A stretch of 64,000 nucleotides of DNA, taken from Candidatus Latescibacterota bacterium. Lineage in GTDB: Bacteria > Latescibacterota > UBA2968 > GCA-2709665. Shown piece by piece: positions 2,527 through 58,036 of the stretch (position 1 is its first letter; each line of letters opens with the position of its first letter). Below the pieces are notes generated by a model. It saw only the letters and a list, made by a program, of their open reading frames with translations, did no database searches and was not told where the DNA came from. The stretch is from assembly GCA_963667175.2 (NCBI GenBank), contig CAXXXF010000015.1, positions 672,001 to 736,000 on the forward strand, given 5' to 3'. The translations under genes and the position numbers were made by a program.

Positions 2527-2574
2527 TTCGGCACCTCAACACGGCGTCGGCACGCGGACCGGAGGCGTCCGGAT

Positions 2575-4545: not shown

Positions 4546-4639
4546 AGGCAGGGGATCGCGTCGGAAGCTAACAGGCGCAAAACCAGAAACTTGGGCGTCA
4601 GCCTGGCTATGCGACGGGTTTCATCATGATTCAAACAAA

Positions 4640-5471: not shown

Positions 5472-6731
5472 TCAGCCTCCCGCCATCGCCGCGCTGAGAA
5501 TCCGTGAGGTGCCGGGCCGCATGATGCGCGGGTCCACCGCCTCCCCCTTCAGCAGCATCTCCCGCACCTGTTTTCCTGAGATGAACACGGGCTGCTCGTC
5601 CGGATGGCTTTCCATCAGGTCCACCCGTCCCAGCGATTCGTAGAACGCGGCGAAGCCCACGTTCAGGGGGCGGATCTCCAGGTTGCCGTTCAGGCGATCG
5701 AACACCTCCTGCGCGTCGAAATCTCCCCAGATCGGGCTGCCGTCGTGATAGGGCGCGTCGGCGTGTTTGCGACCGATGATGATGTCGGTAAAGCCGAAGT
5801 TCTGGCGGTAGATCGCATGCATCACCGCCTCTTTCGGGCCAGCGTAGAACATCTTGATATCCAGCCCGATGAGAATCACCCGGTCGGGCACGGCCTCGCC
5901 CCTGGGCTCCCACAATCCGGCATCGCTGTCCCCCTCCCCCAGACCGCGGGACTCGATCAGCGCCTCGTAGGTCCGCATCCGGATTTCCGCGTTGACGTCG
6001 TCGGACTTGGTTTCTCCCACGAGGGGGTTCAGGCAGGCCCCGGCGTCGATCCCCTTCCGAATCAGGGTTTCCAGTCCGTGGACCAGGGCGTACTCGTGGG
6101 CCCGGTGCAGCGGGTTACGGGTCTGAAACGCGACCACCCGATCCCAGCCCGTTTCGGAGAGGCGCCTTCGGACCTCCGCGGGCGTGTGCATGTATTGACC
6201 GAACGCGGGATGCTTCGGTTGCGGCAATACCCTGATCGTTCCGCCCGCAAGGTGGGTCTTGTCCGCGTCTCCGTTCAGAACCATATCCGCGCCGGGATGG
6301 TCCTTTCGCTCGGTGAGGTAGACGCTTTTGAGATACGCGTGCTTGTCCCAGGGATACACGTCGCTGATCTCGAGAGTACCCGCAAGCTCGCCGTCCGGCC
6401 GCTCAAGGGCGGCCGTCTGCCCCACCTCCAGTTGTCCGGCCAGGTCGCTCGAAACCGGAAGCGCCAGCGGAATGGTCCACGCGTACAGCTTCCCGCGGGA
6501 ATCGATGACACATTCGTCAAGCACTCTGTGGTACGTCTCAGCGTCCATCGGACCGGTGAGCGGACTCAGCCCGCCGTCTCCGAATCGGTATACCGTGGAC
6601 AGATCTGCGTCGCTGACCGGAACGCGGGTCAGCTTCGCTGCATTCTCTCGAAACTCGTCCTGCCCGTCGTCCGGAACCATGCGGCAAACCGGCGCCGGCA
6701 GCCCACCATGCGGCGGTATCAAATCGGACAT
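5472..6731 (-). CDS. sat: Sulfate adenylyltransferase (ATP sulfurylase)
   Basis: [52 protein letters not shown]. Confidence 0.93.
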
Positions 6732-8756: not shown

Positions 8757-9020
8757 GTGCGCATGGCAAAGACGGAATTCATCCGAGCCCGAATAGAACC
8801 TGAGTTGAAGACCCAGGCCGAAGAGATATTTTCGAAGCTCGGATTGTCCCCCACCGATGCGATCACGCTGTTCTATGTGCGGGTCACCCTCCACGGAGGC
8901 TTGCCCTTCGCGGTGAGGATTCCTAACAACGAGACCATTGAGGCAATGCGGCAGGCTGGTACACGGGAGGGCCTAATCGAATACGCCGACCTGGATGCGC
9001 TCAAGGCGGAGCATGGTTGA
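8757..9020 (+). CDS. RelB/DinJ family antitoxin (no adjacent toxin)
   Basis: IRARIEPELKTQAEEIFSKLGLSPTDAITLFY...GLPF.VRIPN.ETIEAM. Confidence 0.9.
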   Translation: MRMAKTEFIRARIEPELKTQAEEIFSKLGLSPTDAITLFYVRVTLHGGLPFAVRIPNNETIEAMRQAGTREGLIEYADLDALKAEHG

Positions 9021-9260
9021 TCCGGGTGCTTTCACCACAGATCGATTCGGTAAGGTTGCCAGCTCCTCTGCTACGCAGTGAATCTCAATCGTTGCGGTGT
9101 CGGAGGGCACGACTTTCAGACCAACAATATGAAGGCAAAGACAAACCCCCGAGAGCGGAATTTTCGGGGGTTCTATGTTGTGTGCGGCCGACAGTCTGAT
9201 GCGCCGACAAATTCCCGCCTGGTCAGAACGATGTAACGAGGTGGGGGTAGGATTTGCGAT

Positions 9261-10439
9261 CTACAATATAGCAGTTTCGACCGTAACGGTCGCAAGGGCC
9301 TCGTTTAGCAGTCGGGCCGCGGTTTCGATTTCTTCGGTCGTCGTGAATCGGCCAAAACTGAAGCGGATGGACGCCTCGCTTTGTGCGTCCGATACGCCGA
9401 GGGCCCGGAGCACGTGCGACGGCTCGGGGATGCCCGTTGTACATGCCGCGCCGGTGGATGCGGCGAGGCGAGGCTGAAGGACGCCAAGGACGTCCTGCGC
9501 ATCGTGGCCGTCAAAGCAGATGTTCGCGTTGCCAGGATGGCGCCTGTCGCCGATTGGTCCGTTGACCGTGATTGGACATTCTCCTTTTTCCAACAGACCA
9601 ATGAAAGTATCGCGCAGGCCAGCCACACGTTTCCGTTCCTCCTCGGCGTCGCCGCTCGCAATAATCTCGGCGGCGGCCCCAAAACCCACGCAGAGTGGCA
9701 TCGGGACCGTGCCCGAACGGAGGCCCTCCTGCTGTCCGCCGCCATAGACCATCGGCTCGACTGAGTCCTTTAGATCACGGCGAATGTACAGCGCCCCGAT
9801 ACCCTGTGGGCCGTACATCTTATGAGCCGAAAGGCTGATCAGGTCGGCATGTGCGGCGAGATCGCTGATATCCATCGCGCACGGCGCCTGCGCCGCGTCG
9901 CAATGAAATACAATGCCGTGCGGTTCGAGCAATTCGGCAATCCGCGGGACGTCCTGAATGGTCCCCACTTCATTGTTGACAGCCATCACCGATGTAAGGA
10001 GAACGCGGTCGTCGACGAGCTTCTCCAATGCATCGAATTCCACAAACCCGTCGCTGTCAACCGGAATGGTCTCAACGGAGATGCCATGATTCTCGGCAAT
10101 CGCCCTGGCGGCCGCGATAACACACTTGTGTTCGATTGCGCTGAACAGTACTCGGTCCCGGTCGTCACTCCCGCGGCGCGCAAGACCTAGAATCGCCAGG
10201 TTGTTTGCTTCCGTCGCCCCTGACGTGAAGATAACCTCATCTCCGTCTGCGCCAATCAGAGTCGCGACCCATTCTGCCGCCTCGCGAACCGCCTCGCCTG
10301 CTCTCCACCCCACAATGTGGTCGCTGGAGTGCGGGTTTCCGAACGATTGGCTCCAATACGGGGCCATCTTGTCCAATACCCGTGCATCAACGGGTGTAGT
10401 CGCCTGATAATCGGCGTAGATGGTGTCAGGATGGTTCAT
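9261..10439 (-). CDS. sspA: Cysteine desulfurase, IscS/SspA/DndA-like (copy 1)
   Basis: DYQATTP, GNPHS, FTSGATEANN, NNEVGTIQ, HCDAAQ, SAHKMYGP, STGAAC; divergent from the sspBCD-like genes. Confidence 0.85.
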   Translation of the reverse strand: MNHPDTIYADYQATTPVDARVLDKMAPYWSQSFGNPHSSDHIVGWRAGEAVREAAEWVATLIGADGDEVIFTSGATEANNLAILGLARRGSDDRDRVLFSAIEHKCVIAAARAIAENHGISVETIPVDSDGFVEFDALEKLVDDRVLLTSVMAVNNEVGTIQDVPRIAELLEPHGIVFHCDAAQAPCAMDISDLAAHADLISLSAHKMYGPQGIGALYIRRDLKDSVEPMVYGGGQQEGLRSGTVPMPLCVGFGAAAEIIASGDAEEERKRVAGLRDTFIGLLEKGECPITVNGPIGDRRHPGNANICFDGHDAQDVLGVLQPRLAASTGAACTTGIPEPSHVLRALGVSDAQSEASIRFSFGRFTTTEEIETAARLLNEALATVTVETAIL

Positions 10440-10612
10440 TGTTTGCTCATCATGTTCTATCTGCAGAAATTACACAATGACTGTCATTGGCGCACGTACA
10501 CTCCCAAGCAATTTTTTATAATAAAAACAAATAGTTATACTAGGGAATGAGGACTATTGGTTAGGCTCTTAATCGAAGAATCCCTGAGAGAAAATCTGAA
10601 ACTCTTTTGCAA

Positions 10613-10644
10613 TTGACAATACTTCGTTTTGTTACTATTGTCAA
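10613..10644. promoter_or_regulatory. Palindromic promoter/operator between sspA and sspB
   Basis: ttgacaata-N14-tattgtcaa inverted repeat; each arm contains a TTGACA -35 hexamer. Confidence 0.5.
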
Positions 10645-10673
10645 GCTGGACGTTCCATCCAGTGGGAGCTATT

Positions 10674-11633
10674 ATGGGTCGAGGTCCCTTATACGAAGAC
10701 GGCTACCAACCGCAACTATCCGGGCACGAGACATTTCCTCTCAGATACGGGTGGCTTAAGAAGGCTTTCGATGCCGTGCGGGAAGCCGAGAGCGACGAGA
10801 ATGGCGGATCGGTCTTCTCGTCGGATGGGGCCATCGCCCGTTTTGGCGTCGGCAAGAACATGGTCGCGTCAATTCGGCATTGGGCGACCGCCGCGGGTGT
10901 CATCAGAGAAGCGTCGCGGAAGCCAAGAACCACGTTACTTGCACGGCGACTATTTGCGAGAAATGGTCTCGACCCCTACATGGAAAACCCTGCGACAGCG
11001 TGGCTGATTCATTGGCAGCTTTGCGGCAACCCCATTAAAACCACATGGTTTTGGACGTTCAATCATTTTCCGGCTCCTTTCTTCGAACGGGATTTGCTTG
11101 TACGTAGCCTGGAGAAACTTCCGGATGAGTGTGGTTGGAAGCCGGTGTCTTCCGCGACAATCAGGAAGGATGTGGCCTGTTTTGTCCGTACGTACGTTTC
11201 GCGGCCCCCGACGGGAAGGGCAAGTCGTGAAGATACGCTGGAGTCCCCGCTCACGGAACTCGGGCTGATTAGACCGATCGGAAAGCGGGATGGATTCCGC
11301 TTCGTGCGTGGTCCTAAACCTTCGCTGGGTCAGGGTGTATTCTGTTACGCGGTCACGAATTTCTGGCGCAACCACCTCCCCGATGTTCGTACGATCTCTT
11401 TCGAAGCACTAGCACATGAACCCGGATCGCCGGGAAAGGTATTCCTGTTAGACGAGAACGACCTGGCGGATCGTCTAACAGACCTGGAAGATGTGAGCAA
11501 CGGCCTCTATCGCTGGTCGGAAACGACAGGGCTGAAGCAGTTGACCCGGAACCGGGAATTAGAAAGTGGCGAAGAGATCGAATTCGTCGAGTTTGACTAC
11601 GGTGGCAAGTTGACGGACAAGGAAATGTCCTGA
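10674..11633 (+). CDS. sspB: DUF4007 family protein, SspB-like (copy 1)
   Basis: SGHETFPLRYGWLKK, GVGKNMVASIRHW, DPYMEN..T.WLIHWQL, ESPLTELGLI, SPGKVF; ATG 10674 preceded by GGGAG. Confidence 0.85.
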   Translation: MGRGPLYEDGYQPQLSGHETFPLRYGWLKKAFDAVREAESDENGGSVFSSDGAIARFGVGKNMVASIRHWATAAGVIREASRKPRTTLLARRLFARNGLDPYMENPATAWLIHWQLCGNPIKTTWFWTFNHFPAPFFERDLLVRSLEKLPDECGWKPVSSATIRKDVACFVRTYVSRPPTGRASREDTLESPLTELGLIRPIGKRDGFRFVRGPKPSLGQGVFCYAVTNFWRNHLPDVRTISFEALAHEPGSPGKVFLLDENDLADRLTDLEDVSNGLYRWSETTGLKQLTRNRELESGEEIEFVEFDYGGKLTDKEMS

Positions 11634-14600
11634 TGGGGCTGGCCGATCGAATAACGATCGCACGGAGGTTTCAGCGTGCGATACGCATCGATAGTGATCT
11701 CAATGATCCGGCTGCATTGGATGGCTTCATTTGTCCAAGATCTTCAGCCGAGGTACTCGAAACAATGGCCCGGCATCTGATCGAAACCGGGCAGGGTGCA
11801 TTCACGTGGACGGGTCCTTACGGCAGCGGAAAGTCGAGCCTCGTAATCGCCCTCAGCGCGGCATTGAAAAATAACGGCGGGCGTGCACGCAATGCGGAGT
11901 CGATACTGGGTCGAAAAACGACATCGATCATTTGGGAAGCGTTGCCCCCTCGCACGAAGGGCTGGCGCATCCTACCCGTGGTTGGTCGAAGGGAACGTCC
12001 GGCTCAAGTCATTGGCGAAGCAATTGCGGCTAATGAATACATTAAAACCCATCCACAGGAGTCGTGGTCCGACAAACGCGTATTGGATACCCTCGAAGAG
12101 ATTGCGTCTAGAAATCCGCGGTCACACGGCGGTCTGGTGATCTTTATCGACGAGTTGGGCAAGTTCCTTGAGGCGGCAGCCAAGGACGGGTCCGATATCT
12201 ACCTGTTTCAGGAACTTGCGGAGAGGGCTTCCCGCAGCAAGAAACGGCTTATTGTTGTCGGTATTCTCCATCAAGCATTCGACGAGTACTCCCACCGCCT
12301 GTCGCGTGAGATGCGGGACGAATGGTCGAAAATACAGGGCCGTTTCTTGGATCTCGTGGTCAACACCCACGGAGACGAGCAAATCGACCTGCTAGGCCGC
12401 GCTATTGAAAGCGATTATCGTCCGCAGACAGCGCGCCCGCTAGCTACGGATGTAGCATCGCAGATACGGCGGCAGACACCTCCCTATTTTGCGGACATGC
12501 TGGAGGATTGTTGGCCTCTTCATCCCGTCGTAGCATGTTTGCTTGGACCTATCTCCCGGCGCCGGTTCGGGCAGAATCAGCGGAGTATTTTCGGTTTCCT
12601 GAATTCCGCCGAAGCTCAAGGGTTTCAGGACTTTATTCGTTTTGCCGGCGATAACGACATCTACGGTCCCGACCGCCTCTGGGATTACCTTCGGATCAAC
12701 CTTGAACCAACGATTCTGGCTTCACCGGACGGACACCGCCTGGCGCTGGCTATCGACGCCCTGGAACGTTGTGAGGCAGTAGGCGGTGACCAATTGCATC
12801 AACGGCTATTGAAGGTAATCGCAACCGTCAACATGTTCAGGGACCGCTCGGGACTCGGCGCGAGCCGACGTCTATTGGAACTTGCACTACCCGACTATGA
12901 CTCAGGCGACGTCGAAAACGCGCTGAGAGATTTGAAAGGTTGGTCGTTCGTCATCTTCCGCAAATTTGACGACGCGTACTCCATATTCGAGGGTAGCGAT
13001 TTCGATGTCGATGATGCAGTAAGACGCGCACAGGATAGCACGGGCGAGGTGGACTTTACCGCGCTCAATGCGCTTGCCGGCCTGCAACCGATCGTTGCAA
13101 AACGCCACTACCACGAAACCGGGGCTCTACGCTGGTTCGACGTTGTCGTGGTTCCTCTGGCGGAGGTAAAGCATGCGGCTGCCGAGTACGCACCGCGACA
13201 AGGCGCTATTGGCGGATTCTTTCTAGCGATTCCGACTCAAAATGAGAGTGAAGCGGTGGCATGGAAGATTTGTCACCAGGCTTCAGCGGAACGACTACAA
13301 TGTGACGTCGTAGTCGGTCTCTCTCAGAGGGCATGGGGCATTCCCTCCTTGGCAGTTGAGCTGTTGGCGCTGGAGCACGTGCGCGACGAGACGCCGGAGC
13401 TTCTAGGGGACAGGGTCGCGCGTATCGAGGTCGAGGCCCGTGTCAGTGCGTTACAGGGGCATCTGGAAGGCGAACTCGCCGGTGCCTTCGATAGCGTGTC
13501 GTGGAGCTATCGAGGCGCGACCTCAGATTCTCTTCGTTACGCCGAAGTCAATAGTTTCGCTTCCGATCTCGCCGACGCCCGTTTCAAAAAGGCTCCTCGA
13601 ATCCACAATGAATTGTTGGGCCGGATGAAACCGTCGAGCAACGCCGTCGCCGCACGAAACACGCTTCTTAGACGCATGGCTCTGCATGAAGGCGAGGCGC
13701 GGTTAGGCATCCAGGGCTTCCCTGCAGAGGGCGGGCTGTTTGCTTCGCTTCTGGATGCAACGAGGCTCTACTCTGAAACCAATGGTGTATGGAGATTTGT
13801 GGAGCCCTTGGACGGCGACAAAGATCCGCACAACCTGGCGCCAACCTGGCAAGCGGCAAAGGAATTCCTCGAATCCAAAGCTGACCGTTCGGTGCCGTTA
13901 TCCGAGATTTACGAAATCTGGCGGCGACCTCCATTTGGCATAAAGGACGGTCTCCTGCCCGTATTGGCAGCGGCTTTCTTGCTCTCGCAGCGAACCACAT
14001 TGGCATTCTATCGTGACGGGATCTTTCAAGCGCGCGTTTCAGAACTGGATATGGACTTTCTTGCCAGAGATGCATCTGATATTCAGGTGCGATGGATGGA
14101 CATTTCAGAAATGTCACGTCGGCTCTTATCCGAAATGGCGGACATCGTGCGTGACCTTGACGAAGAGAACACGTTGACTCATCTTGAACCGATAGACGTA
14201 GCGAAGGGATTGGTCGCCATATATGACCGTTTGCACCCGTGGGTCGGCAGAACCCAGAGACTTTCGCGCAATGCCAGACGCATCCGGCAACTCTTCAAGC
14301 AGGCCAATGACCCAAACAAGCTGATTTTTGACGATATTCCCGGCGTATTACCGAACGTGCAAGAGGTTGAACTCAAAGACGCTTCCGAAGAGATCGCGGA
14401 TCGTGTCCGGAACGGTTTGACGGAGTTGATCCAAGCCTATCCGAATATGCTCAATCGTATCCGTGAAACACTTCTGACGGAGCTTCAGGTGCCGAATGCG
14501 TCACCCTCAATGCTTGCTGAACTACGTGCTCGCGCTGACAATATACGGGAACTTGGCGGCGACCACCGTCAGGAGGCATTTATCGTACGCCTTGCGGAGT

Positions 14601-15016
14601 TCGAAGGTGGCGACGACGACATGGCAGGTCTCGCAGGCATGGCGGTAAACAAACCCGTCCAGAATTGGGTGGACCCGGATATCGATCGTGCGACAGTCGA
14701 ACTTGCAACGATGGCGCAGCGGTTTATTCGTGCAGAAGCCTTTGCACGAGTCAAGGGTCGCAAGGACAAGAGGAACGCAATGGCGGTAATTGTGGGGATG
14801 GGCGGACAGCCGAAGCTGGCTCACAAAGAATTCGAGATTACGGAGCGGGATCAAACTGCAGTTAGAGAGTTAATTAATCGCTTGGACGGAACACTGAGAA
14901 GCAACGGCCAGGAAAGACGCAACTTAATTCTCGCCGCCCTGGCGGAGTTAAGCGCTCGGTATCTGGATCCCGATGTATCGACGAAATCAAGTGGGACGAG
15001 GAGATCCGACTCGTGA
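11633..15016 (+). CDS. sspC: Large P-loop ATPase, SspC-like (copy 1)
   Basis: Walker A GPYGSGKS, Walker B IFIDELGKFLE, WPLHP, FGQNQRSIFGFL; lies between DUF4007 and PAPS-reductase-like genes with overlapping stop/start codons. Confidence 0.82.
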   Translation: MGLADRITIARRFQRAIRIDSDLNDPAALDGFICPRSSAEVLETMARHLIETGQGAFTWTGPYGSGKSSLVIALSAALKNNGGRARNAESILGRKTTSIIWEALPPRTKGWRILPVVGRRERPAQVIGEAIAANEYIKTHPQESWSDKRVLDTLEEIASRNPRSHGGLVIFIDELGKFLEAAAKDGSDIYLFQELAERASRSKKRLIVVGILHQAFDEYSHRLSREMRDEWSKIQGRFLDLVVNTHGDEQIDLLGRAIESDYRPQTARPLATDVASQIRRQTPPYFADMLEDCWPLHPVVACLLGPISRRRFGQNQRSIFGFLNSAEAQGFQDFIRFAGDNDIYGPDRLWDYLRINLEPTILASPDGHRLALAIDALERCEAVGGDQLHQRLLKVIATVNMFRDRSGLGASRRLLELALPDYDSGDVENALRDLKGWSFVIFRKFDDAYSIFEGSDFDVDDAVRRAQDSTGEVDFTALNALAGLQPIVAKRHYHETGALRWFDVVVVPLAEVKHAAAEYAPRQGAIGGFFLAIPTQNESEAVAWKICHQASAERLQCDVVVGLSQRAWGIPSLAVELLALEHVRDETPELLGDRVARIEVEARVSALQGHLEGELAGAFDSVSWSYRGATSDSLRYAEVNSFASDLADARFKKAPRIHNELLGRMKPSSNAVAARNTLLRRMALHEGEARLGIQGFPAEGGLFASLLDATRLYSETNGVWRFVEPLDGDKDPHNLAPTWQAAKEFLESKADRSVPLSEIYEIWRRPPFGIKDGLLPVLAAAFLLSQRTTLAFYRDGIFQARVSELDMDFLARDASDIQVRWMDISEMSRRLLSEMADIVRDLDEENTLTHLEPIDVAKGLVAIYDRLHPWVGRTQRLSRNARRIRQLFKQANDPNKLIFDDIPGVLPNVQEVELKDASEEIADRVRNGLTELIQAYPNMLNRIRETLLTELQVPNASPSMLAELRARADNIRELGGDHRQEAFIVRLAEFEGGDDDMAGLAGMAVNKPVQNWVDPDIDRATVELATMAQRFIRAEAFARVKGRKDKRNAMAVIVGMGGQPKLAHKEFEITERDQTAVRELINRLDGTLRSNGQERRNLILAALAELSARYLDPDVSTKSSGTRRSDS

Positions 15017-15855
15017 AAGACACAAGAAAGGAAAAACACGTTCTGGGTCTGTCGGGTGGCCGCGATAGCGCGGCGCTTGCCGTATACATGCGCCAAAACT
15101 ACCCCGAACTTGACATCGAATATTTCTTTACCGATACTGGCAAAGAATTACCTGAAGTTTACGAGTTTCTGGTCAAGCTAGAAGGCTTTCTGGGAAAGTC
15201 AATCGAACGGTTGAATCCAGATCGCGATTTCGACTTCTGGTTAAAGCAATACAACAACTTTCTGCCGTCGGCCCAAAGCCGATGGTGCACGCGGCAACTC
15301 AAACTGCGGCCTTTCGAGCGGTGGATTCGTCCGATTCTGGACAGTGGCGTAACGGTTTATAGCTACGTCGCGATTCGTGCGGACGAGGAATATCGCGAAG
15401 GCTACACCTCGAAACGCGGCAATTTGGTCGTGAAGCTCCCGCTGAAGGATGACGGGATTGACAAAGCGGGAGTGCTGGAGATCCTTGAAGGCGCGGGGCT
15501 TGGGTTGCCGCACTACTACGAGTGGCGGACGCGTAGTGGCTGCACGTTCTGTTTTTTCCAGCAGAAAATCGAATGGGTGCGATTGATGGACCGACATCCT
15601 GAGTACTTCGAGGAAGCCAAGCGCTACGAGAAAACCGCCATAGGTCACGGGTCACCCTTCACCTGGAGCCAGGGAGAATCGCTTCACGATCTCGCCAAAC
15701 CAGAACGCGTGGCGCAGATCGAGGCGGAACACACTCGACGACTCGAAAGAATGCACAACAAACGTCAGGTCAACCCGCTTCGACCAGATGCGGAACCTAT
15801 AGACGTAGATGACCTATATGGTAAAGCAAAGGTATGTCTTGCATGTCACAAATGA
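15013..15855 (+). CDS. sspD: PAPS reductase-family protein, SspD/DndC-like (copy 1)
   Basis: PP-loop LSGGRDS, DTGKE, RWCT, RSGCTFCF, C-terminal CLAC. Confidence 0.88.
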   Translation: MKDTRKEKHVLGLSGGRDSAALAVYMRQNYPELDIEYFFTDTGKELPEVYEFLVKLEGFLGKSIERLNPDRDFDFWLKQYNNFLPSAQSRWCTRQLKLRPFERWIRPILDSGVTVYSYVAIRADEEYREGYTSKRGNLVVKLPLKDDGIDKAGVLEILEGAGLGLPHYYEWRTRSGCTFCFFQQKIEWVRLMDRHPEYFEEAKRYEKTAIGHGSPFTWSQGESLHDLAKPERVAQIEAEHTRRLERMHNKRQVNPLRPDAEPIDVDDLYGKAKVCLACHK

Positions 15856-16025
15856 CGACGAGCGCGAAGGACCTAATGTCATTGCCACGAGGGAGGTCTC
15901 GTGGGCGCAAGAAAATGGACATTCCGATCAGTTTCGTTGGAAGGAAAACAGGTTGTTGCGACTGCGGAAATTTAGATGTCCATGGTAGCAATCGACGAGG
16001 ATGACGATAGGTCGGGCTAGATGGT

Positions 16026-16562
16026 GTGTGCATTGAACATCGCGACGCCTTTCGGCCTGAAGTGATTGACGTGTTCAACCCTGGTAACGAACCAATGGAG
16101 TCACCTGCGGATCTTGTTGCTTCTCAGGACGATTACAATAGGCACGTTTGGCCTTTTTGCCTTTGGCCGAATCAATGGAAGACGTGCAATGTGAATCTAA
16201 GGTGGCACAACGTAGTATTAGACGACAATGGCAAGTCTAACGTACCCGACACAACCGGGGTCTATTCTCTAGTAATTCAACCCGGGATTGCAAACCACCC
16301 GGGATGCTCTTATCTGATGTACGTCGGTAAGGCCAAGGATCTTCGAAAACGCTTTGGTGACTATTTGTCCAGAGAGAGAACCAAGCGTCCCAAAGTTGTG
16401 CGACTTCTTGAAATGTACCGAGGCCACATAAAGTTTTTCTATTCAACGGTCGACATAGAAACTCTTGACAATACAGAAGAGGAATTGATCAACACCTTCA
16501 TTCCTCCTTGCAATTCAAGATTTAAAGGGGTAGTACGACGGGTGTCAGGGGCATTTCGATGA
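16026..16562 (+). CDS. GIY-YIG nuclease family protein
   Basis: GVY...YVGKA..LRKRF..Y...E.ELI....PPCN; probable start ATG 16095. Confidence 0.8.
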   Translation: MCIEHRDAFRPEVIDVFNPGNEPMESPADLVASQDDYNRHVWPFCLWPNQWKTCNVNLRWHNVVLDDNGKSNVPDTTGVYSLVIQPGIANHPGCSYLMYVGKAKDLRKRFGDYLSRERTKRPKVVRLLEMYRGHIKFFYSTVDIETLDNTEEELINTFIPPCNSRFKGVVRRVSGAFR

Positions 16563-17836
16563 ATGACAAACAAGATCGACTCTTTCTTCCTGCCCTTCGG
16601 GCCACGATGGGCGATTGGGTGTATTACATATCCTATATGAGCATGGATGATATCGCTGCTCGCGTTAGCATAGTTGACGATATCCATTCAAGCAGATCAT
16701 TGAAGGATTGGCTACAAAGGGGGCTAACCAACAACTCAGTAAAAATCACAGAGTACTTGGTTGCCCAGAAACAAAGACTATTCAACGCGATAGTGGTTGG
16801 AACCTACGGAGGAAGTCCGAATTGGCATGAGATTACCGTCTCCGGACGAAATCTAGACGAAGTACCGGAAATCGTTGATGGAACTATGGGACTACTGGAA
16901 CTTAACGGGGAAGAAACTCTGTTTGCAATAGACGGTCAGCATCGCGTGAAAGGCATCAAGGAGGCTATCAAAGATAAAGAAACCTTAAAGGAGGAGCAAG
17001 TATGCACGATCTTCATACCAGGAGTTATCGCAAGCAGGCGTGACTCTGACCCAGATGGTTTTCAGCGGACGAGACGCCTCTTTTCGACACTAAACCGATA
17101 CGCTAAACCTGTTCAAAAGCGGGATATTATCGCACTTGATGAAGATGATGTGGTTGCAATAGTCACGCGGAAGCTATTGGAAGAGCACGATTTGTTGATC
17201 GACAAGGTGGATTTAGGCCTTACGAAATCGATAAGAGCTACCGACCACACGAACCTTACCACGATCGTTACGTTGTACGACGTTGTGGACATCGTATTGC
17301 GTGACCGTAAGAGGGGGTGGCAGGACTATAAGCGTCGTCGACCGCCAGAGCCGGAAGTCGACGATTTCTACCGAAAGGCAACGGAATTTTGGGACGAGCT
17401 ATGCTGTCAATTTAGCTCGCTAAACGAGTTTCGTGACAGTTCAACAGAAGATAGCGTCGCTGGCAAATTCAGGAGTCCGAACGGAGGGAATCTTCTATTT
17501 CGTCCCGTTGGCTTGATGTTGATCGGACGTGTTGTCGTTGATTTACGTACGATAGAGGACATGAGCCTAAAAGAGGCGATTGAGGCTGTTGGACGTACTC
17601 CGACCGACCTTACTGATGATCCGTGGCCCGGACTGCTTTGGGACAATGCAAACAAACGTATGCTGACCGCGAAGGAGAATCAGAAGGTCGCTCGTCAATT
17701 GCTTTTCAACGCACTGGGAGGCGATCTAAAACTCGCACCTTTCAAGACATCTAGAGACAAGGTGCGAGAAGAATTGGCAGGATTGCTGAATCGAGATCCC
17801 GAGAAGGTCGGTCTTCCCGTCTACATTTCACACTGA
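16559..17836 (+). CDS. DGQHR-domain (DndB-like, ParB superfamily) protein
   Basis: WLQR, FNAIVV, FAIDGQHR, RRLFSTLNRYAKPV; overlaps the GIY-YIG gene by 4 nt. Confidence 0.88.
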   Translation: MNDKQDRLFLPALRATMGDWVYYISYMSMDDIAARVSIVDDIHSSRSLKDWLQRGLTNNSVKITEYLVAQKQRLFNAIVVGTYGGSPNWHEITVSGRNLDEVPEIVDGTMGLLELNGEETLFAIDGQHRVKGIKEAIKDKETLKEEQVCTIFIPGVIASRRDSDPDGFQRTRRLFSTLNRYAKPVQKRDIIALDEDDVVAIVTRKLLEEHDLLIDKVDLGLTKSIRATDHTNLTTIVTLYDVVDIVLRDRKRGWQDYKRRRPPEPEVDDFYRKATEFWDELCCQFSSLNEFRDSSTEDSVAGKFRSPNGGNLLFRPVGLMLIGRVVVDLRTIEDMSLKEAIEAVGRTPTDLTDDPWPGLLWDNANKRMLTAKENQKVARQLLFNALGGDLKLAPFKTSRDKVREELAGLLNRDPEKVGLPVYISH

Positions 17837-18350
17837 GTGGTTAAACCGATGTCGGACAACACCCTTTATTGGAATTTAAGGAAGTTCGATAGCACGGTTT
17901 TGGAAGTGACCCTTTTTCTGTAGTCGCTGTCAGACCTTGATCTCCGCCCGTTGTTCGATTCCAATGTCCTTGCGGTATTGGATGTCACATTTGGCGGAAC
18001 CATTGTGGGTCACACCTGTCCAAAATCGGTTTCAGTCTTGGACAGCATCTGGTTCACTTCCGCGAAGCAATCCCTCGACCAAGATTGCCTGAGATTCACA
18101 AAGTGCTTATTTCACGGGCTTATTGAGACGGAAACAGCACAATTATGGCCGCTGGAAACGTCACCTTGTTCTTGGACAGCATTGCGCAGACGATGGCAAA
18201 CCTGTTTTTCATTATCCGGGTCAAACCCGTCCAAAATCGCCTATTGTAGCCATTTTTCGAACCTTATCTCTGGGAATCCGACGGTTCTTGGACAGCAGTG
18301 ATTGTGGGTGATGTATTCTAGTTGGATTCAGCCTGAGAGGTTTCGGAGAT

Positions 18351-20804
18351 TTGACAATGAAAGCGACTATGAGGCAGCTTTTTAATGATCTGTACATTGC
18401 AGCGGGCGAAAGCGACGTTGATAAAGTCATCAACAATCGCCCGGAAGTATTCGATAGGAAAAATTGGTATCCCCTTGGAGGTAACGAGAACAACTTTGGC
18501 GTGATTGAAAACCAACAGTCGAATCCGACTGCCGCATTGATAGAGAAGATCACTAATTCAATAGATGCCGTTCTGATGAAGAAGTGCTTGGAGTCAGGTG
18601 TCGACCCCAAATCTAAACAGGCACCACGTACCATGGAGGAGGCAAAGGCTAGGTTTTTCGAAGATCACAAGAACTGGGATCTGGTACGTTCAAGAAAAAA
18701 ACAAGCCGAAGACATACAGATTATCGCCGACGGACCAAGACTCAAGACGTCGCTGACTGTATATGATAATGGGGAAGGACAACACCCGGAAGACTTCGAG
18801 AAGACGTTCCTATCGTTGCTAGAGGGCAATAAGATTGAAATTCACTTTGTTCAGGGCAAATACAACATGGGCGGCAGTGGCGCTATTGTATTTTGCGGCA
18901 AAAGGCGGTATCAGTTAATCGGCTCAAAGAGATTCGACAACAAAGGTAGATTCGGGTTTACGTTAATTAGAGAACATCCTATGAGCCAAAGTGATGAGAT
19001 AGCTCGAAAGGATACGTGGTACGAATATTTAAAGATAGGCGGCGATATTCCTGCGTATGATGCGGCACAACAGGATTTTGGTTTGCATAACAGAAAGTTC
19101 ACTACAGGCACAATAATCAAACTGTACTCATATGATTTGTCAGTGGGTAGCCGTTCCGTAATCTCAAGGGATCTGAATCAGAGTATCAATGAATATTTGT
19201 TCGAACCAATTTTGCCCGTGATTACGGTTGACAAAAAGGAACGGTATCCACATGACCGAAATTTGGAAAGAGATTTGTACGGTTTAAAGCGAAGATTGGA
19301 GCAGGATGATAGCCGCTATGTGGAAACATACTTTTCGGAAGATTTCGATAACGCGCCGTTCGGAAAATTGAAGGCGACATGTTATGTATTCAGGACGAAG
19401 ATGGACGATAGAACGGTAAAAGAGACCAAGCAGACAATTCGCAATGAATTCTTCAAAAACAACATGTCCGTGCTGTTTTCCGTTAATGGACAGGTACACG
19501 GGAACTATACAAGTGAATTCATCACCCGTTCGCTAAAACTGAACCTACTCAAGGACCACCTCCTTATTCACGTCGATTGCACCAATATGGACTATGGATT
19601 CCGCAAACATTTGTTCATGGCGTCCCGAGATCGACTAAAGGATGGCGAGGAAACAAGAAAGTTAAGGCACTTCTTGGCTGAAAAACTCGGCGCAAAAAAC
19701 AGCCGGTTAGCTGAAATCCAAAGACAGAGAAAAGACTCTATATCGGTAGAAAGTGGTGATGCGAAAAAACTCCTGGGGTCACTGACGCAGAATCTAAGGA
19801 TGCAAAGTGACTTGATGAGGTTGTTGTCTCAAACACTAGAATTGGATAAACCTATTGACGGCAGATCGAAAAAACACAAACGCAAGTCGAAAATGAAAAA
19901 GCATGAGGAAACGCAACCCTTTAACCCCAAGCGATTTCCGACGTTCTTTAAGAGGCGCGTGAAGGGTTCAAATGGAAACGGTGTGGTGACAATTCCAATG
20001 GACGGCGAGAAAACTATCCATTTTGACACAGATGTCGAAGACCACTATTTCGATCGTGTTGAGGAACCTGGTGAACTCAAACTTGCTCTGCTAGGTTTCA
20101 AGAGGAATGAATCCTCGGGCGGGGTATCACCCGGCCAAATTGATGAAATCGAAGATGTATTAAATGTGCGTAAGAGTAGCCCACAAGAAGGTACCATCAA
20201 AGTTCATTTAAACCCAAAAGAAGAGGTATCTGTCGGAGACGCAGCCAAGATCGAGGCTGACCTCACTTCTCCAAACGGAGCCTTTGAAGCGGAAGTATTC
20301 TGGGTGAAAATAGGTGAACCGAAGGCGCCTAAGCAGAATTCAAAAAAGAACAACGAGGCCAATTTCCCGAATTTAGGACTTCCTGAATATATCCTTACCT
20401 ACCAAAACCCAATGGAGAATGCTGTAACTTGGAGCGATTTCGAGGAAACGACCGGCCAATCTATGGACTATGACGTTGTGATGCATCCCTCACTAGAAGG
20501 CGACCAGTTAGAGAAAATCTATATTAATATGGACAGCACGACATTCAAAAATTACAAGCCTAAGAACCCGAACGATGAGCAGTTAGAGTTGGCAAATGGT
20601 AGATACATCGCGTCGGTGTACCTGCATACTCTGTTTCTCTATACGATAACAAAGAACCTGAAATACAGAATCAAGAGAGAATCCGAAAACGGTCCCGTCG
20701 ACGAGGAAATAGACACGTACCTTAGGGAGTTATTCGGTAGCTATTACGCAGAATTTATCCTGAACTTTGGTGCAGATCGAATAATGCAATTGCTCGCGGA
20801 CTAA
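18351..20804 (+). CDS. GHKL (HATPase_c) ATPase, MORC/TopoVIB-like, uncharacterised
   Basis: EKITNSID (N box), YDNGEG (G1), QGKYNMGG (G2), TGT. Confidence 0.75.
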   Translation: MTMKATMRQLFNDLYIAAGESDVDKVINNRPEVFDRKNWYPLGGNENNFGVIENQQSNPTAALIEKITNSIDAVLMKKCLESGVDPKSKQAPRTMEEAKARFFEDHKNWDLVRSRKKQAEDIQIIADGPRLKTSLTVYDNGEGQHPEDFEKTFLSLLEGNKIEIHFVQGKYNMGGSGAIVFCGKRRYQLIGSKRFDNKGRFGFTLIREHPMSQSDEIARKDTWYEYLKIGGDIPAYDAAQQDFGLHNRKFTTGTIIKLYSYDLSVGSRSVISRDLNQSINEYLFEPILPVITVDKKERYPHDRNLERDLYGLKRRLEQDDSRYVETYFSEDFDNAPFGKLKATCYVFRTKMDDRTVKETKQTIRNEFFKNNMSVLFSVNGQVHGNYTSEFITRSLKLNLLKDHLLIHVDCTNMDYGFRKHLFMASRDRLKDGEETRKLRHFLAEKLGAKNSRLAEIQRQRKDSISVESGDAKKLLGSLTQNLRMQSDLMRLLSQTLELDKPIDGRSKKHKRKSKMKKHEETQPFNPKRFPTFFKRRVKGSNGNGVVTIPMDGEKTIHFDTDVEDHYFDRVEEPGELKLALLGFKRNESSGGVSPGQIDEIEDVLNVRKSSPQEGTIKVHLNPKEEVSVGDAAKIEADLTSPNGAFEAEVFWVKIGEPKAPKQNSKKNNEANFPNLGLPEYILTYQNPMENAVTWSDFEETTGQSMDYDVVMHPSLEGDQLEKIYINMDSTTFKNYKPKNPNDEQLELANGRYIASVYLHTLFLYTITKNLKYRIKRESENGPVDEEIDTYLRELFGSYYAEFILNFGADRIMQLLAD

Positions 20805-20870
20805 TCCTCGTATCGAGTAGATAGTGCGGATAAGATAGCCAACAAATGAAGTGAAGGTTTTCACACGGGG

Positions 20871-20977
20871 ATGAGAATTCCGAATGCCCAGGTCCGTACG
20901 CGCGTCTGCAAGTGCGCGCTGGATCGGGTCACAACGAGTACGCCGATCTGGACGCGTTCAAGGCGGTGCATGTTTGA
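20871..20977 (+). pseudogene. Degenerate remnant of a relB-like gene 3' end
   Basis: 20936-20977 encodes EYADLDAFKAVHV* versus EYADLDALKAEHG* at 8979-9020 (36/42 nt identical by eye); an RIPN motif is also retained upstream in another frame. Confidence 0.7.
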
Positions 20978-21145
20978 TCGGCGCACCTTGTCGCCTCGTA
21001 TCGCCTTGAGCGACGGCTAAGGCACGCCGGAAGAAATTGACAAATTAACGAATTGCAAGAGAAGACCTCCGGAGACCGACATCTCAGGGGGTCTGCTTTT
21101 GGTCAGGCGTCGACCGGAGGGCGATTGCGACCTCTCTGCCTCGTC

Positions 21146-24100
21146 TCAAAACGACATGCCGAGCTGGAGGTGGGGGACGGCGCCTTTGGGTTCGGTGAAG
21201 CCGTATGCCGCGCCGATGCGGAAGCGGAACGGCACAAAGAGCATGCCGGCGGAGTACACGATCTCGGCGCCGGCGGCCAGGAGCGGCTGCGGCCTGGCTG
21301 ACTGGGAGTCATTGCGGCCCCATGCGTTTCCGGCATCGGCGAAGAGCGTGAGAAACGCGCGGTCGAAGTGCAGCAGGTCCGTCCGAAAGGCGCGGTTCGC
21401 CAGGGTAGCCGGCAGGCGGAGTTCGAGCGACGCAGTCCAGGCGCGCCATCCCGAGCGGGGGGTCCCTTCGTATCCCCGAACAGGAAACACGCGTCGGCCC
21501 GAGCCGCCAATGCTGAAATGCCCCCTGCCGCTGCCCGGCCCGCGCGCGATGCCCGCGCTTGCCCGGAGCGCCAGCACCGGCGCCGCGAATCCGCCTCCTG
21601 GCAGCATCATGTATGCCCTGACGTCGCCGGTCGCGTCGTCCAGCGACCGGTCATCCGATGAACCCCGGTCCAGGTCGATGCGCCGCCTGGCCAGGACGGA
21701 GAGTGACGCGCCCGCCGCCTGCCCGATTTGAAACGCGTGGGACCGGGCGGTCGAGGCGCGGAAGCGGGCTGCCACTTCGCCCAGCGTGCTGCTGGGGGTC
21801 TCGAATTCAGGCAGTTCCTCTGGCTTGAGCGTGGAATCCAGCGCCTCCCGGCGCTCTCTCAGAAGTCCGCCCGTGAGCGAGAATGAAAGCTTGCTCCACG
21901 CCCTGGGACGCGCTACTCCCACTGAGAGTCCCGCATAGCGTGTCCGTTCGAGAACATACGTGGTGTCGACCGGTGCGTCGCCGTTCTCCTTCCTCACCCT
22001 GACGCGTTCCTCGTCCCAGTTCTGCGACACGGACAGTCCCAGCGCGGGATTGCCGAGCCCGGCATACCGGTACGTCAGAAAACCCGCCGCTCTGCCGCCC
22101 GAATATCCTCCAGTCGGGAGAAAGGCGCGCGCAGTCAGGGCATACGTATGTCGTCCCACGAGGTCCACCCCGGAGGTAAAGGCGCCAACGGAGGCGCCGA
22201 GGACCTTTGTACGTGGCGTTGTCCCGCTCCCCGCGCCCGAGAAGGAAACCGACCCGATGGGTATCCAATAGCGCGGCAGCAGGGTCTGCAGTGGCGAATA
22301 TGCGCGTATTTGACCGCCGGCAGGGGCCCGGGAGTCACTCTCTCTGGCTGCGACCTCACGAGCGGTTCTGCCCGCGGCCGTGTCTGTCGAATCGTGAAGG
22401 TGTTCAGGCGCCAGGGGGGCGTGGTCCGGATTGAACGGAATGCGTTCGACCTCCCATCCGTCCACGTGGTACCCGGAGACATAGAGCCACTTCCCCGACG
22501 GATCCACGCTCGGCATGGCGGCGCCCGTACGGACGTTCGTGAGCATGACCGGCGTTGCGGCCTTCGCGCCTTCGAAACGCGCCGCGAGGACGTTCAGAAT
22601 GCCGGTCCGGTCGGACGCCCACACCAGCCACCGCCCGTCGGGGCTCCATGCGGGCGCGAAATCCAGCGCGCGGTCCCGGGTGACCTGGCTCACGAGGCCG
22701 CCGCGTTCGTCGAGGACGACAACGTCCTGATTCCCGCCCGCCCAGCGGGACGCGGCAATCCGCCGGCCGTCGGGTGAGACCGCGGGCAATGCCCAGTAGA
22801 CGCCGTCTTCCGGGTGAACCAGCGTATCGATGGCGCCGCTATTGATATTGACGCGGACCAGGCCGTTCGTCCCCTCTCCTTCGGCAACGGCGACAACACG
22901 GTTTCCCGGGCCGGCCGACGGGGCGCTCAGGCGGGCGGCGGTGGTCAATCGTTGCACCGCGCCGTCCGGAGTCACCCGGTAGAGATCTCTGAACCGCCGG
23001 TACCGCCCGGAGAATTCCAGCTGGTCGACGACAATGTCGCCGTTCGGCGCGAACGTGAACCGGCGTCCGCGGATCCGCGCGAACGTCGATTCGCCGCCGC
23101 CGTTCGGGCTTGCCGAAACGAGCCTGGTATCGGATCGGCCATCGGAGCGGATGTAGATCAGGGTCGAACCATCCGGCGACACCTTCGGATGGTCCGCATA
23201 GCGGGCGCCATCGGTAAGTCTTTCAGCTTCGGTGATCGCGCCGAATCCGGCGAGCCGGGCGCCCAGCACCGCCACAGAGTCCCGCCACGCGTCCGCCCAC
23301 GCGGCCCATTCGTCCGACAGGCTGACGCCGAAGGCGCTTCTTCCTGCCGCGTTCAGCCGATAGGGTATCCACTGGTTCTCCACGGCCTCGACAAAGGCCG
23401 CCATCCGGTCCCGCCCGTGCTTCCGCAGGAGGTATTCGAAGAACATCGGCCCGTACGTGTACGCGCGGTTTCCGCCAGGCCATTGCGGCGAGGAACCTCC
23501 CGCCTGGCCGATGGACTCGAAACGGCCTTCCAGCGCTGCCGTCCGCAGCACCATGTCGTTGAAGGTTCCCAGCACGCGGCCCCTGCCCGTGAGTGCGGAT
23601 TCGTACCACGTCCCGATGCCTTCGATGACCCACCGAGGCGTCGTGAAGGCAGGAAAACCGAAAACCGGAAACGGAATCCGGCCGAAGAGTCCCCGAACGC
23701 TGTAACGGCCCGGCCGGTCGAGGTGAAAAATGTGCGTCAGTTCGTGCACGATCAATAGTTGCTGCCAGTCGTCGAAATAGCCGAGCGGGAAACTGTCGAC
23801 GGGCGGACGCGCGAACAGGACAATGCGGTTCGAAGGGAATGGGGTCGCGTACCCGTTGGAGACGTCGGTATGATCGGTGAGGACGACGTCGATCGGTCCT
23901 TTCGGCCCATGGACGAAATGTTCGGACAGCCGCGCGTAAGCCCACTCCGCCTGCCCGCCCGCCCGGCGGGCAAGCGACTCGAGATGCCCGGGGAAGGTAA
24001 CGCGGAAGTGTTCCGTTTCGAGAGTGCGCCAGGGTTCGTCCGGCGGGACAGGCTGCGCCACAGCCGGCGTTGCGCAATAGGCGATGAACGCCAGCAGGAC

Positions 24101-24160
24101 CGGCAGCGTCCGCCGGACACGGGAAGCCGGACTGCGTGACGTGAAGAGAGAGGGTTTCAA
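21146..24160 (-). CDS. Outer-membrane protein: signal peptide, HExxH peptidase-like domain, PD40/TolB-like propeller, Omp85/BamA-like barrel
   Basis: Signal peptide, VHELTHIFH and PRWVIEG, repeated SPDG motifs, VRGY, C-terminal Phe. Confidence 0.75.
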   Translation of the reverse strand: MKPSLFTSRSPASRVRRTLPVLLAFIAYCATPAVAQPVPPDEPWRTLETEHFRVTFPGHLESLARRAGGQAEWAYARLSEHFVHGPKGPIDVVLTDHTDVSNGYATPFPSNRIVLFARPPVDSFPLGYFDDWQQLLIVHELTHIFHLDRPGRYSVRGLFGRIPFPVFGFPAFTTPRWVIEGIGTWYESALTGRGRVLGTFNDMVLRTAALEGRFESIGQAGGSSPQWPGGNRAYTYGPMFFEYLLRKHGRDRMAAFVEAVENQWIPYRLNAAGRSAFGVSLSDEWAAWADAWRDSVAVLGARLAGFGAITEAERLTDGARYADHPKVSPDGSTLIYIRSDGRSDTRLVSASPNGGGESTFARIRGRRFTFAPNGDIVVDQLEFSGRYRRFRDLYRVTPDGAVQRLTTAARLSAPSAGPGNRVVAVAEGEGTNGLVRVNINSGAIDTLVHPEDGVYWALPAVSPDGRRIAASRWAGGNQDVVVLDERGGLVSQVTRDRALDFAPAWSPDGRWLVWASDRTGILNVLAARFEGAKAATPVMLTNVRTGAAMPSVDPSGKWLYVSGYHVDGWEVERIPFNPDHAPLAPEHLHDSTDTAAGRTAREVAARESDSRAPAGGQIRAYSPLQTLLPRYWIPIGSVSFSGAGSGTTPRTKVLGASVGAFTSGVDLVGRHTYALTARAFLPTGGYSGGRAAGFLTYRYAGLGNPALGLSVSQNWDEERVRVRKENGDAPVDTTYVLERTRYAGLSVGVARPRAWSKLSFSLTGGLLRERREALDSTLKPEELPEFETPSSTLGEVAARFRASTARSHAFQIGQAAGASLSVLARRRIDLDRGSSDDRSLDDATGDVRAYMMLPGGGFAAPVLALRASAGIARGPGSGRGHFSIGGSGRRVFPVRGYEGTPRSGWRAWTASLELRLPATLANRAFRTDLLHFDRAFLTLFADAGNAWGRNDSQSARPQPLLAAGAEIVYSAGMLFVPFRFRIGAAYGFTEPKGAVPHLQLGMSF

Positions 24161-34418: not shown

Positions 34419-34420
34419 TC

Positions 34421-36775: not shown

Positions 36776-36785
36776 GGTAGAACCC

Positions 36786-37586: not shown

Positions 37587-37606
37587 GTTTGATCCACCTC
37601 TTGAAG

Positions 37607-48664: not shown

Positions 48665-48731
48665 GAAGGTCGACCTTGATGATATTGTCGTCTTGTACAG
48701 TTCGTCTGGTACAGAGCCCGGAATGACGCTA

Positions 48732-48763
48732 AATGTCGGCACTTAGATATATCTGCCGACATT
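48732..48763. promoter_or_regulatory. AbiEi-type operator inverted repeat (copy 3)
   Basis: aatgtcggca-N12-tgccgacatt. Confidence 0.7.
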
Positions 48764-50334: not shown

Positions 50335-50361
50335 AAGTCAACCGCTTGCGAAGCGAATTTA

Positions 50362-50393
50362 AATGTCGGCACTTAAACATAACTGACGACATT
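50362..50393. promoter_or_regulatory. AbiEi-type operator inverted repeat (copy 2)
   Basis: aatgtcggca-N12-tgacgacatt upstream of abiEi. Confidence 0.7.
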
Positions 50394-58030: not shown

Positions 58031-58036
58031 AGCAAG

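Follow-up and report, generated by a model that had tools for sequence, protein, structure and literature searches.

What do a standalone GIY-YIG nuclease gene and a DGQHR-domain protein gene do next to the DNA phosphorothioation genes sspABCD? The question is raised by positions 9261-20804 of a 64,000-nucleotide stretch (the window) of contig CAXXXF010000015.1 from Candidatus Latescibacterota, where a divergent sspA and an sspBCD operon are followed by these two genes, here called the dyad, and by a gene for an 817-aa GHKL-type ATPase. The original prediction saw in the dyad a split analogue of SspE, or otherwise a hybrid of the Ssp and Dnd phosphorothioation (PT) systems. Our own tentative answer, which we hold at slightly short of an even chance, is that the dyad is a two-subunit, phosphorothioate-linked nuclease with SspE-like logic. 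The predicted gene order, including a 4-nt overlap within the dyad, was borne out by the open reading frame (ORF) and profile checks. As predicted, the span also contains no DUF262/HNH gene, and no ORF in it matches SspE, SspF, SspG or SspH (PADLOC) or DUF262 or HNH (Pfam) at the thresholds used.

The first gene of the dyad, at 16026-16562 on the plus strand, encodes the GIY-YIG protein of 178 aa, and the second, at 16559-17836 on the same strand, encodes the DGQHR-domain protein of 425 aa, so that the two genes share positions 16559-16562. The ATG at 16095 is probably the true start of the GIY-YIG gene, since Met24 is nearly invariant across the family. A scan with an alignment of the DGQHR protein, using one genome per species, identified 276 relatives, and the best 80 of these (38-77% identity; loci L001-L080) were analysed with up to 10 kb on each side. 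ORFs in these loci were longest-ORF calls, which were searched with the window proteins and then clustered. The loci represent archaea as well as numerous bacterial phyla, and many of them lie on contigs of metagenome-assembled genomes, often sponge- or sediment-associated. In 72 of the 80 loci, a GIY-YIG homolog immediately precedes the DGQHR gene, and in 47 of these 72 the two genes overlap, by 4 nt in 33 loci and by 1 nt in 14. Three of the remaining eight loci (L005, L053 and L057) are cut by a contig end or rearranged, and in the other five (L003, L010, L011, L012 and L066) the upstream flank is complete and an intact GIY-YIG gene is missing from it. In one protein, P0121 (598 aa), the two parts are fused, with the GIY-YIG domain at residues 43-154 and the DGQHR part starting at residue 177. 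These observations support the view that the pair is a conserved unit with translational coupling between its genes.

There is a strong linkage between the dyad and the genes for phosphorothioation. Ssp genes, counted as present when at least one of SspB, SspC and SspD was found at E < 1e-20, occur in 54 of the 80 loci. Of the 52 loci that have at least 9 kb of sequence on both sides, 39 contain Ssp genes and another 3 contain Dnd genes; this is the neighbourhood analysis proposed with the original prediction, and its result differs from the contrary outcome named there, a pair occurring mostly without PT genes. In 41 of the 72 dyad loci, the dyad is preceded on its own strand by an sspD gene, which in 22 of them ends no more than 200 nt from the start of the GIY-YIG gene. 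In five further loci (L032, L041, L055, L071 and L074), DndC or DndE adjoins the dyad. No other recurrent accessory module is seen in 13 of the 54 Ssp-bearing loci, which are candidates for loci in which the dyad is possibly the sole partner of sspBCD.

The dyad is also found in cultured bacteria. In plasmid pROLI83 of Roseobacter litoralis, sspA-B-C-D is followed by the GIY-YIG homolog (annotated as "hypothetical"), the DGQHR gene and then a convergent trio of phospholipase D (PLD), GHKL and helicase genes. Three Ti-type plasmids of Rhizobium contain the dyad followed directly by genes of the size of SspFGH, and have convergent sspD and sspC genes. In Rhizobium sp. NXC14, the dyad is followed by a methyltransferase gene and then by dndB-C-D-E and a desulfurase gene. 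In an integrative conjugative element of Salmonella Infantis SARB27, the dyad, identified by the family profiles at E 1.2e-38 (GIY-YIG) and 5.6e-77 (DGQHR), adjoins dndBCDE, and together with a gene for a 594-aa unannotated protein it is convergent to that cluster (L089, 9182-18080). The NXC14 and SARB27 clusters both retain their own dndB beside the dyad, and in SARB27 the DGQHR family profile gives 26 bits to the annotated DndB and 247 bits to the dyad DGQHR protein. A survey of plasmid records identified 65 with an SspC homolog, 4 of which also contain a DGQHR homolog. Since only 4 of the 65 records carry one, the dyad is optional, at a frequency similar to that of SspE and SspFGH, which are given as present at 7.4% and 7.3% of sspBCD loci, respectively (PMC8092258). 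The closest plasmid relatives of the SspBCD proteins lack the dyad, and the one in Pannonibacter is instead accompanied by the helicase/GHKL/PLD trio. A Candidatus Tenderia plasmid contains unnamed genes with lengths like those of SspH and SspG. Among phage records there is no full-length homolog of the DGQHR protein, and the sole good match is a Salmonella contig within that collection.

The GIY-YIG protein is a divergent member of its family, scoring 19.7 bits against Pfam PF01541 (E 1e-3), which is under the gathering threshold of 22.6. A search of the PDB sequences with this protein gave weak matches to EndoII and UvrC. An AlphaFold model based on 70 homologs has a mean predicted local distance difference test score (pLDDT) of 85.3, and in Foldseek it matches chains of the UvrC N-terminal domain with a probability of 1.00 and target-normalised TM-scores of 0.66-0.76. 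The model also matches T4 EndoII, R.Eco29kI and I-TevI, and the incision domain of UvrC is its closest relative in the fold search. The small protein is thus predicted to have the GIY-YIG alpha/beta fold. G78, Y80, Y99, G101, R109 and E151 are invariant in the 70 sequences, and Asn163 is the majority residue at its position. We take Y80, Y99, R109, E151 and Asn163 to correspond to the catalytic residues of UvrC, judging in part from the mutant names of the structural matches. With this set of residues in the predicted fold, the protein looks like an active nuclease. The family comprises 1946 clusters (50% identity) at E <= 1e-3 and 825 at E <= 1e-10, and the best 150 clusters consist of standalone proteins of 124-245 aa, nearly all of them 155-200 aa long.

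The DGQHR protein belongs to the families NCBIfam TIGR03187 (101.6 bits, cut-off 58.85) and Pfam DndB (PF14072; E 4.8e-26, 92.1 bits, cut-off 29.1). It scores 51.8 bits with the DndB equivalog TIGR03233, far under the cut-off of 328, and 17 bits with the NCBIfam model "DNA phosphorothioation-associated DGQHR protein 1", for which the cut-off is 450. The existence of the latter model implies that curators were already aware of PT-associated DGQHR proteins other than DndB. The N-terminal domain of SspE is a DUF262 domain with a DGQQR motif. The DGQHR protein falls outside the SspE family, as it has no match to DUF262 or to the PADLOC model of SspE. The residues D125-G126-Q127-x-R129, an RTRRLF..LNR block and an acidic ALDEDD block are invariant in 22 diverse homologs. 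The AlphaFold2 model (pLDDT 81.9) had no match in the fold search at E <= 1e-3; the best PDB match was a weak one to the N-terminal domain of the ParB protein of pNOB8 (E 0.07, probability 0.77), and SspE was absent among the 50 matches listed. A prediction of the complex between the GIY-YIG and DGQHR proteins, with an alignment for each, scored 0.17 where the mark was 0.32, which is evidence neither way. A DndB-like protein has been described to bind ATP and GTP in vitro (bioRxiv 10.1101/2025.10.10.680097).

The genes surrounding the dyad are variable. In 7 loci, the DGQHR gene is immediately followed by SspF-SspG-SspH homologs (PADLOC E-values of 3e-240, 6.9e-206 and 0, respectively). Other loci contain a Pbe-like set beside the dyad, consisting of a PbeA-like protein (PLD plus helicase), a PbeC/DndD-like protein and a 153-aa protein, and 3 loci contain a five-gene HerA/BrxCD-like set. 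A trio of a superfamily 2 (SF2) helicase, a HATPase_c_3 protein of about 614 aa and a protein of about 305 aa, which is assigned to the phospholipase D family in RefSeq, is present in about 11-15 of the 80 loci and in two additional ones (L081, 11477-15901; L084, 13301-17688). This trio adjoins sspBCD both with the dyad, as in pROLI83, and without it, as in the Pannonibacter plasmid, and it looks like another uncharacterised Ssp partner. To follow these modules we inferred a quick IQ-TREE phylogeny of the DGQHR proteins (80 rows, with L005 left out). The number of state changes on this tree was 7 for the 817-aa GHKL gene, 12 for the helicase trio, 14 for the Pbe-like set and 4 for SspFGH, and the SspC category (window-type, other type or none) changed at least 23 times. 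The repeated changes of state suggest that the dyad is the stable unit, around which the other modules are exchanged.

In each of the five loci that lack an intact GIY-YIG gene, the DGQHR gene is accompanied by an HNH gene, and the HNH proteins belong to two different Pfam families. L003, L010 and L066 encode HNH_2 proteins. In L011, the DGQHR gene is immediately preceded by a gene for an HNH_4 protein. The HNH_4 and DGQHR genes of L012 (6444-11215) are separated by an inserted CBASS-like pair consisting of a DncV-like nucleotidyltransferase and an HNH-SAVED effector. Together, the DGQHR and HNH genes of these loci provide in trans the combination of ParB-like and HNH domains that is found in SspE.

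Two lines of reasoning led us to the two-subunit, PT-linked nuclease. One is the nature of the pair itself, namely the coupling of the genes, the intact active site, the invariant ParB-type motif, the interchange with HNH genes and the single fusion. The other is its distribution, namely the linkage to two PT-writing systems, the coexistence with a true DndB and the optional, SspE-like occurrence. In the proposed model, the ParB-fold DGQHR subunit would bind a nucleoside triphosphate (NTP) and DNA and read the PT status of the DNA, and it would then license the small GIY-YIG subunit to nick or cut the DNA. This would follow the logic of a ParB-like NTPase plus a nuclease known from SspE and GmrS/GmrD, using another ParB-fold family, another nuclease fold and two polypeptides. 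The dyad would be an optional add-on, working alone with sspBCD or next to other restriction modules, and the 817-aa GHKL protein would be an independent Ssp-associated component, a second accessory unit downstream of sspABCD. Within this model we infer a physical complex, an NTPase activity, reading of the PT status, a direction of control (PT-stimulated or PT-inhibited) and an anti-phage function.

The idea of a split SspE analogue is supported in part, by the conserved and coupled dyad, its linkage to PT genes, the invariant motifs and the HNH genes in the loci that lack GIY-YIG, and it fails in that the DGQHR protein is not of the SspE family. Neither is the dyad simply the missing SspE of the locus, since it is often placed beside a known restriction module, SspFGH (7 loci and the three Rhizobium plasmids), and it is better described as an add-on.

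Several observations weigh against the proposed model. Ssp genes are absent within 10 kb in 13 of the 52 loci with full flanks, and about 10 of these also lack Dnd genes. The counts come from the best 80 of 276 relatives and describe this subfamily only. The model of the DGQHR protein has no convincing structural match to SspE or to any solved protein, and a search of the PDB with the family profile gave nothing at E <= 1. The fused form is represented by the single record P0121, and longer fusions of the DGQHR protein were sought and not found, which is weak evidence. A remnant of 30 aa from the C-terminal end of the GIY-YIG protein is kept in L003, and because of this remnant the locus is to be regarded as decayed and not as a clean swap to HNH. 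A constant dyad amid varying restriction-like modules also fits an accessory of the modification genes. Finally, DndB, which alone among DGQHR proteins has been characterised, regulates transcription (PMC4507180; PMC10853773).

The last point leads to the suggestion that the DGQHR protein is a regulator or limiter similar to DndB, acting by repression or by consumption of NTP, with the GIY-YIG protein in an auxiliary role, so that the dyad tunes the modification. We consider this unlikely. It would agree with the placement of the protein in the Pfam DndB and NCBIfam DGQHR families, given that DndB is described as an ATP-modulated negative regulator (PMC10853773; PMC4507180), and with the finding that the dyad stays beside the modification genes while the restriction modules change. 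The short distance to sspD in 22 loci also suggests co-transcription with the modification operon. However, a regulator has no need for an obligate partner with an invariant nuclease active site, nor for the HNH nucleases that take the place of this partner in other loci. Moreover, the dyad coexists with a bona fide dndB in the same cluster, and it is located downstream of sspD and not at the head of the operon, where dndB is found in the dndBCDE cluster of NXC14. In addition, 61 of the 65 SspC-bearing plasmid records lack the dyad.

A broader version of the nuclease hypothesis, in which the dyad is a general reader-nuclease for the PT mark itself, is likewise improbable in our judgement. Such an enzyme may license the cutting of invading DNA, or it may incise PT sites and thereby set their partial occupancy. 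It would have to sense the mark independently of the sequence, through the sulfur in the backbone or the act of modification, since the dyad accompanies both different SspBCD lineages and DndBCDE, which differ in their motifs and in whether one or both strands are modified.

It is distinctly unlikely that the dyad works independently of PT, as a defence or suicide nuclease complete in itself, and is merely co-located with PT genes in defence islands. In favour of such a role, URI/GIY-YIG genes at the boundaries of Dnd modification loci have been proposed to encode backup suicide effectors (PMC10853773). The roughly 10 of 52 full-flank loci without any PT gene within 10 kb would be explained, and the window region is indeed a low-GC island among other defence genes. 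On the other hand, a dyad on the same strand within 200 nt of sspD, as in 22 loci, is a tighter arrangement than expected from residence in the same island. The link to PT also recurs across bacterial phyla, archaea and two PT systems, and it outlasts the at least 23 changes of SspC category on the DGQHR tree.

We regard it as very unlikely that the dyad serves the chemistry or upkeep of the modification, either by nicking DNA to give SspBCD access or by incision beside PT sites, which could cause partial occupancy. The similarity of the nuclease domain to the UvrC incision domain would suit this function, and it has been suggested that DndB might influence access or the incorporation of PT by acting as a nuclease or NTPase (PMC10853773). 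PT is also present on only 10-15% of the consensus sites (PMC12914056). However, in experimentally active systems from Vibrio and E. coli, cloned iscS and sspBCD suffice for DNA modification (PMC8092258), and most sspBCD loci on plasmids lack the dyad. The last alternative, the Ssp/Dnd hybrid of the original prediction with a DndB gene recruited from a Dnd system, can be dismissed almost entirely, for although the Pfam domain is named DndB and some homologs are annotated in RefSeq as "DNA sulfur modification protein DndB", the protein is far from the DndB equivalog (51.8 bits against 328), the SARB27 DndB is hardly recognised by the family profile (26 bits against 247), the dyad coexists with dndB in NXC14 and SARB27, and searches with Pfam, NCBIfam and PADLOC identified no DndC, DndD or DndE gene in the span 9261-20804.

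The two-subunit nuclease may be compared with several known systems. GmrS is a DUF262/ParB-like protein. Like the dyad, GmrS and GmrD combine an NTPase/endonuclease part with a second part, either as two proteins or as one fusion (PMC4619093), and they are thus a precedent for split and fused forms that parallels the dyad and P0121. They differ in that they target DNA with glucosyl-hydroxymethylcytosine, are not linked to PT and consist of other domain families. SspE resembles the dyad in being an optional partner of sspBCD that joins an NTPase of the ParB superfamily to a DNA nickase. It operates by PT recognition, followed by GTP hydrolysis and licensing of the nuclease, a scheme referred to as "recognise-hydrolyse-activate" (PMC13251355), and it has been treated as the equivalent of DndB (PMC10853773). 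However, SspE is one polypeptide with a C-terminal HNH domain, whereas the dyad is encoded by two genes and has a GIY-YIG nuclease and a ParB-fold part from the DndB/DGQHR family. DndB shares with the dyad DGQHR protein the PF14072 domain, the DGQHR motif and the association with PT modification genes. The dyad protein differs from DndB in that it scores far under the equivalog cut-off, is encoded after sspD and not at the head of the operon, always has a nuclease gene as its partner and is found together with a true dndB.

SspFGH is, like the dyad, a restriction module beside sspBCD, and it directly follows the dyad in 7 loci and in the three Rhizobium plasmids. There is no homology between the two, and SspF has a Walker A motif and SspH an FtsK-like C-terminus (PMC8092258). 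SspE and SspFGH are compatible and co-occur (PMC8092258). The three genes downstream of sspD in the span were considered as candidates for SspFGH and rejected, since the PADLOC models of SspF, SspG and SspH give no match there and the description of SspF and SspH in PMC8092258 does not apply to them. The URI/GIY-YIG nucleases at the borders of Dnd loci (PMC10853773) are similar in that a GIY-YIG-type nuclease is found beside PT modification genes, and where the dyad accompanies Dnd they are probably the same or a related family. GIY-YIG is mentioned once in the main text of PMC10853773, and the parts of it that were examined contain neither a DGQHR dyad nor a link to Ssp. Our full-text literature search, the coverage of which lies outside subscription journals, identified no paper that describes the dyad or its link to Ssp; what comes closest is a single sentence about URI nucleases bordering Dnd loci.

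About 85% of the sspBCD clusters have neither SspE nor SspFGH (PMC8092258). The dyad is a conserved two-gene candidate partner for sspBCD, probably one with a role in defence. It has a wide distribution among bacterial phyla and archaea, accompanies Ssp as well as Dnd systems and is found in cultured, tractable strains. The comparison of the loci also exposed other recurrent, uncharacterised modules linked to Ssp, namely the 817-aa GHKL protein, a double-GHKL protein with a 640-aa protein, the helicase+GHKL+PLD trio, and DUF262 with SIR2. If the dyad is indeed a PT-linked nuclease, the design in which a ParB-fold NTPase licenses a nuclease would have arisen more than once, with interchangeable nuclease folds, and the dyad would provide a simple model, made of two proteins, in which the reading of PT can be studied.

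The sspABCD genes of the span make up a complete module, predicted from its sequence to carry out single-strand DNA phosphorothioation. The cysteine desulfurase gene sspA (9261-10439, minus strand) matches PADLOC SspA at 3.6e-127 and Pfam Aminotran_5 at 4.8e-80, and its product falls under the NCBIfam equivalog cut-offs for IscS and DndA. It is divergent from sspB (10629-11633, plus strand), which encodes a DUF4007 protein (Pfam 6.9e-86; PADLOC SspB 4.3e-105), and the two are separated by a 189-nt spacer. A promoter-like match at 10613-10644 (TTGACA, 17 nt, TATTGT), which reads identically on both strands, would fit a divergent promoter. A scan of 9000-21200 for promoters and terminators found fewer sites than in shuffled sequence and is for this reason uninformative. 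The large P-loop ATPase encoded by sspC (11633-15016, plus strand) is related to BrxC (1.5e-104; PADLOC SspC E=0, 1297 bits), and sspD (15013-15855, plus strand) encodes a PAPS-reductase-like PP-loop enzyme (PADLOC SspD 1e-135; Pfam PAPS_reduct 5.6e-7). The gaps around the dyad (15700-18500) contain no Rfam match at E <= 1, and the segment 15013-20804 has no megablast match in complete E. coli genomes. The GC content drops from about 0.62-0.65 to 0.44-0.57 over approximately 6.8-21 kb of the window, a stretch that contains the span and is bordered by two housekeeping-type genes, one for an ATP sulfurylase (5472-6731) and the other for a PD40-repeat protein (21146-24160). In the high-GC flank, a 910-aa ORF at 1897-4629 is doubtful, with no Pfam or PADLOC match and long overlapping ORFs in other frames.

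The 817-aa GHKL-type ATPase gene (18351-20804, plus strand) may start at TTG 18351, at ATG 18357 or at 18369, where a Met aligns with its relatives. The protein scores 22.1 bits with HATPase_c_3, under the cut-off of 25, and the domain is matched by all 11 family members examined (best E 9.4e-6). Its neighbours in the Atlas carry HATPase names, and a PDB sequence search gave nothing at E <= 1. The family has the invariant blocks E65/N69/D72, D139xGxG143 and G169..G174-G175-G177, which presumably are the Bergerat ATP-binding motifs. Homologs adjoin the dyad in 10 loci, with a fragment in L004, and are found in front of the GIY-YIG gene in some loci and behind the DGQHR gene in others, about 20-30 nt away. 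The three best plasmid homologs (45-56% identity) are all located beside sspBCD on plasmids that lack the dyad, for which reason the gene is best seen as a separate Ssp-associated gene and not as a part of the dyad. Two plasmids, pC of Ensifer adhaerens and one of Devosia neptuniae, contain the homolog together with homologs of a 784-aa and a 640-aa protein beside sspABCD. A plasmid of Hymenobacter sp. YIM 151858-1 (L087, 11451-18557) contains sspB-C-D, a gene for a 345-aa protein with only a DUF262 domain, SIR2 and a convergent GHKL gene of the 817-aa type; the ParB-like domain is here paired with a non-nuclease effector.

The DGQHR and GHKL genes of the window are separated by a non-coding gap of 520 nt (17837-18356). 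A segment of about 90 nt at 17915-18013 (plus strand) resembles the 5' end of the helicase genes that follow the DGQHR genes in L001 and L002 (blastn, 72-74% over 88-99 nt; blastx, 16 aa at 75% identity to the L001 helicase ORF, E 0.05). An SF2-helicase gene trails the dyad in the closest relatives, L001, L002 and L005. The presence of this helicase-like remnant suggests that the 817-aa GHKL gene probably joined the locus by replacing a helicase+GHKL+PLD module.

The module at 9261-20804 is the second one in the window, as originally predicted, the other sspABCD module being located at 36786-43097 on the minus strand. The SspC proteins of the two modules are only 26% identical, which argues for separate acquisitions and not for a recent duplication. 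In the other module (32496-43097, minus strand), sspA-B-C-D is followed by genes for a 784-aa double-GHKL protein with HATPase_c_3 and HATPase_c domains (34421-36775, minus strand) and a 640-aa protein without a family match (32496-34418, minus strand). BLASTP detects no significant similarity between the 817-aa and 784-aa GHKL proteins, and the 640-aa protein is no relative of the 817-aa protein either. The recurrent three-gene set of 817-, 784- and 640-aa proteins is in this window split between the two Ssp modules.

The minus-strand module is itself located between type I restriction-modification genes, which are spread over 27 kb of the window (27408-54712, minus strand) and comprise hsdM (52559-54712), hsdS (43231-44568) and an hsdR with a C-terminal Schlafen/AlbA_2 domain (27408-30944). 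Also placed between these genes are two AbiEi/AbiEii pairs (48821-52041), a gene for a 1326-aa TPR/PIN protein of the TPR-GreAB-C-PIN type (44762-48742) and one for a SoFic-type Fic protein (30941-32158). The far edge of this second island contains a group II intron-type reverse transcriptase/maturase (54941-56311), a PIN/Phd-YefM toxin-antitoxin pair (57354-58141) and a tRNA-Lys(CTT) gene (59748-59823).

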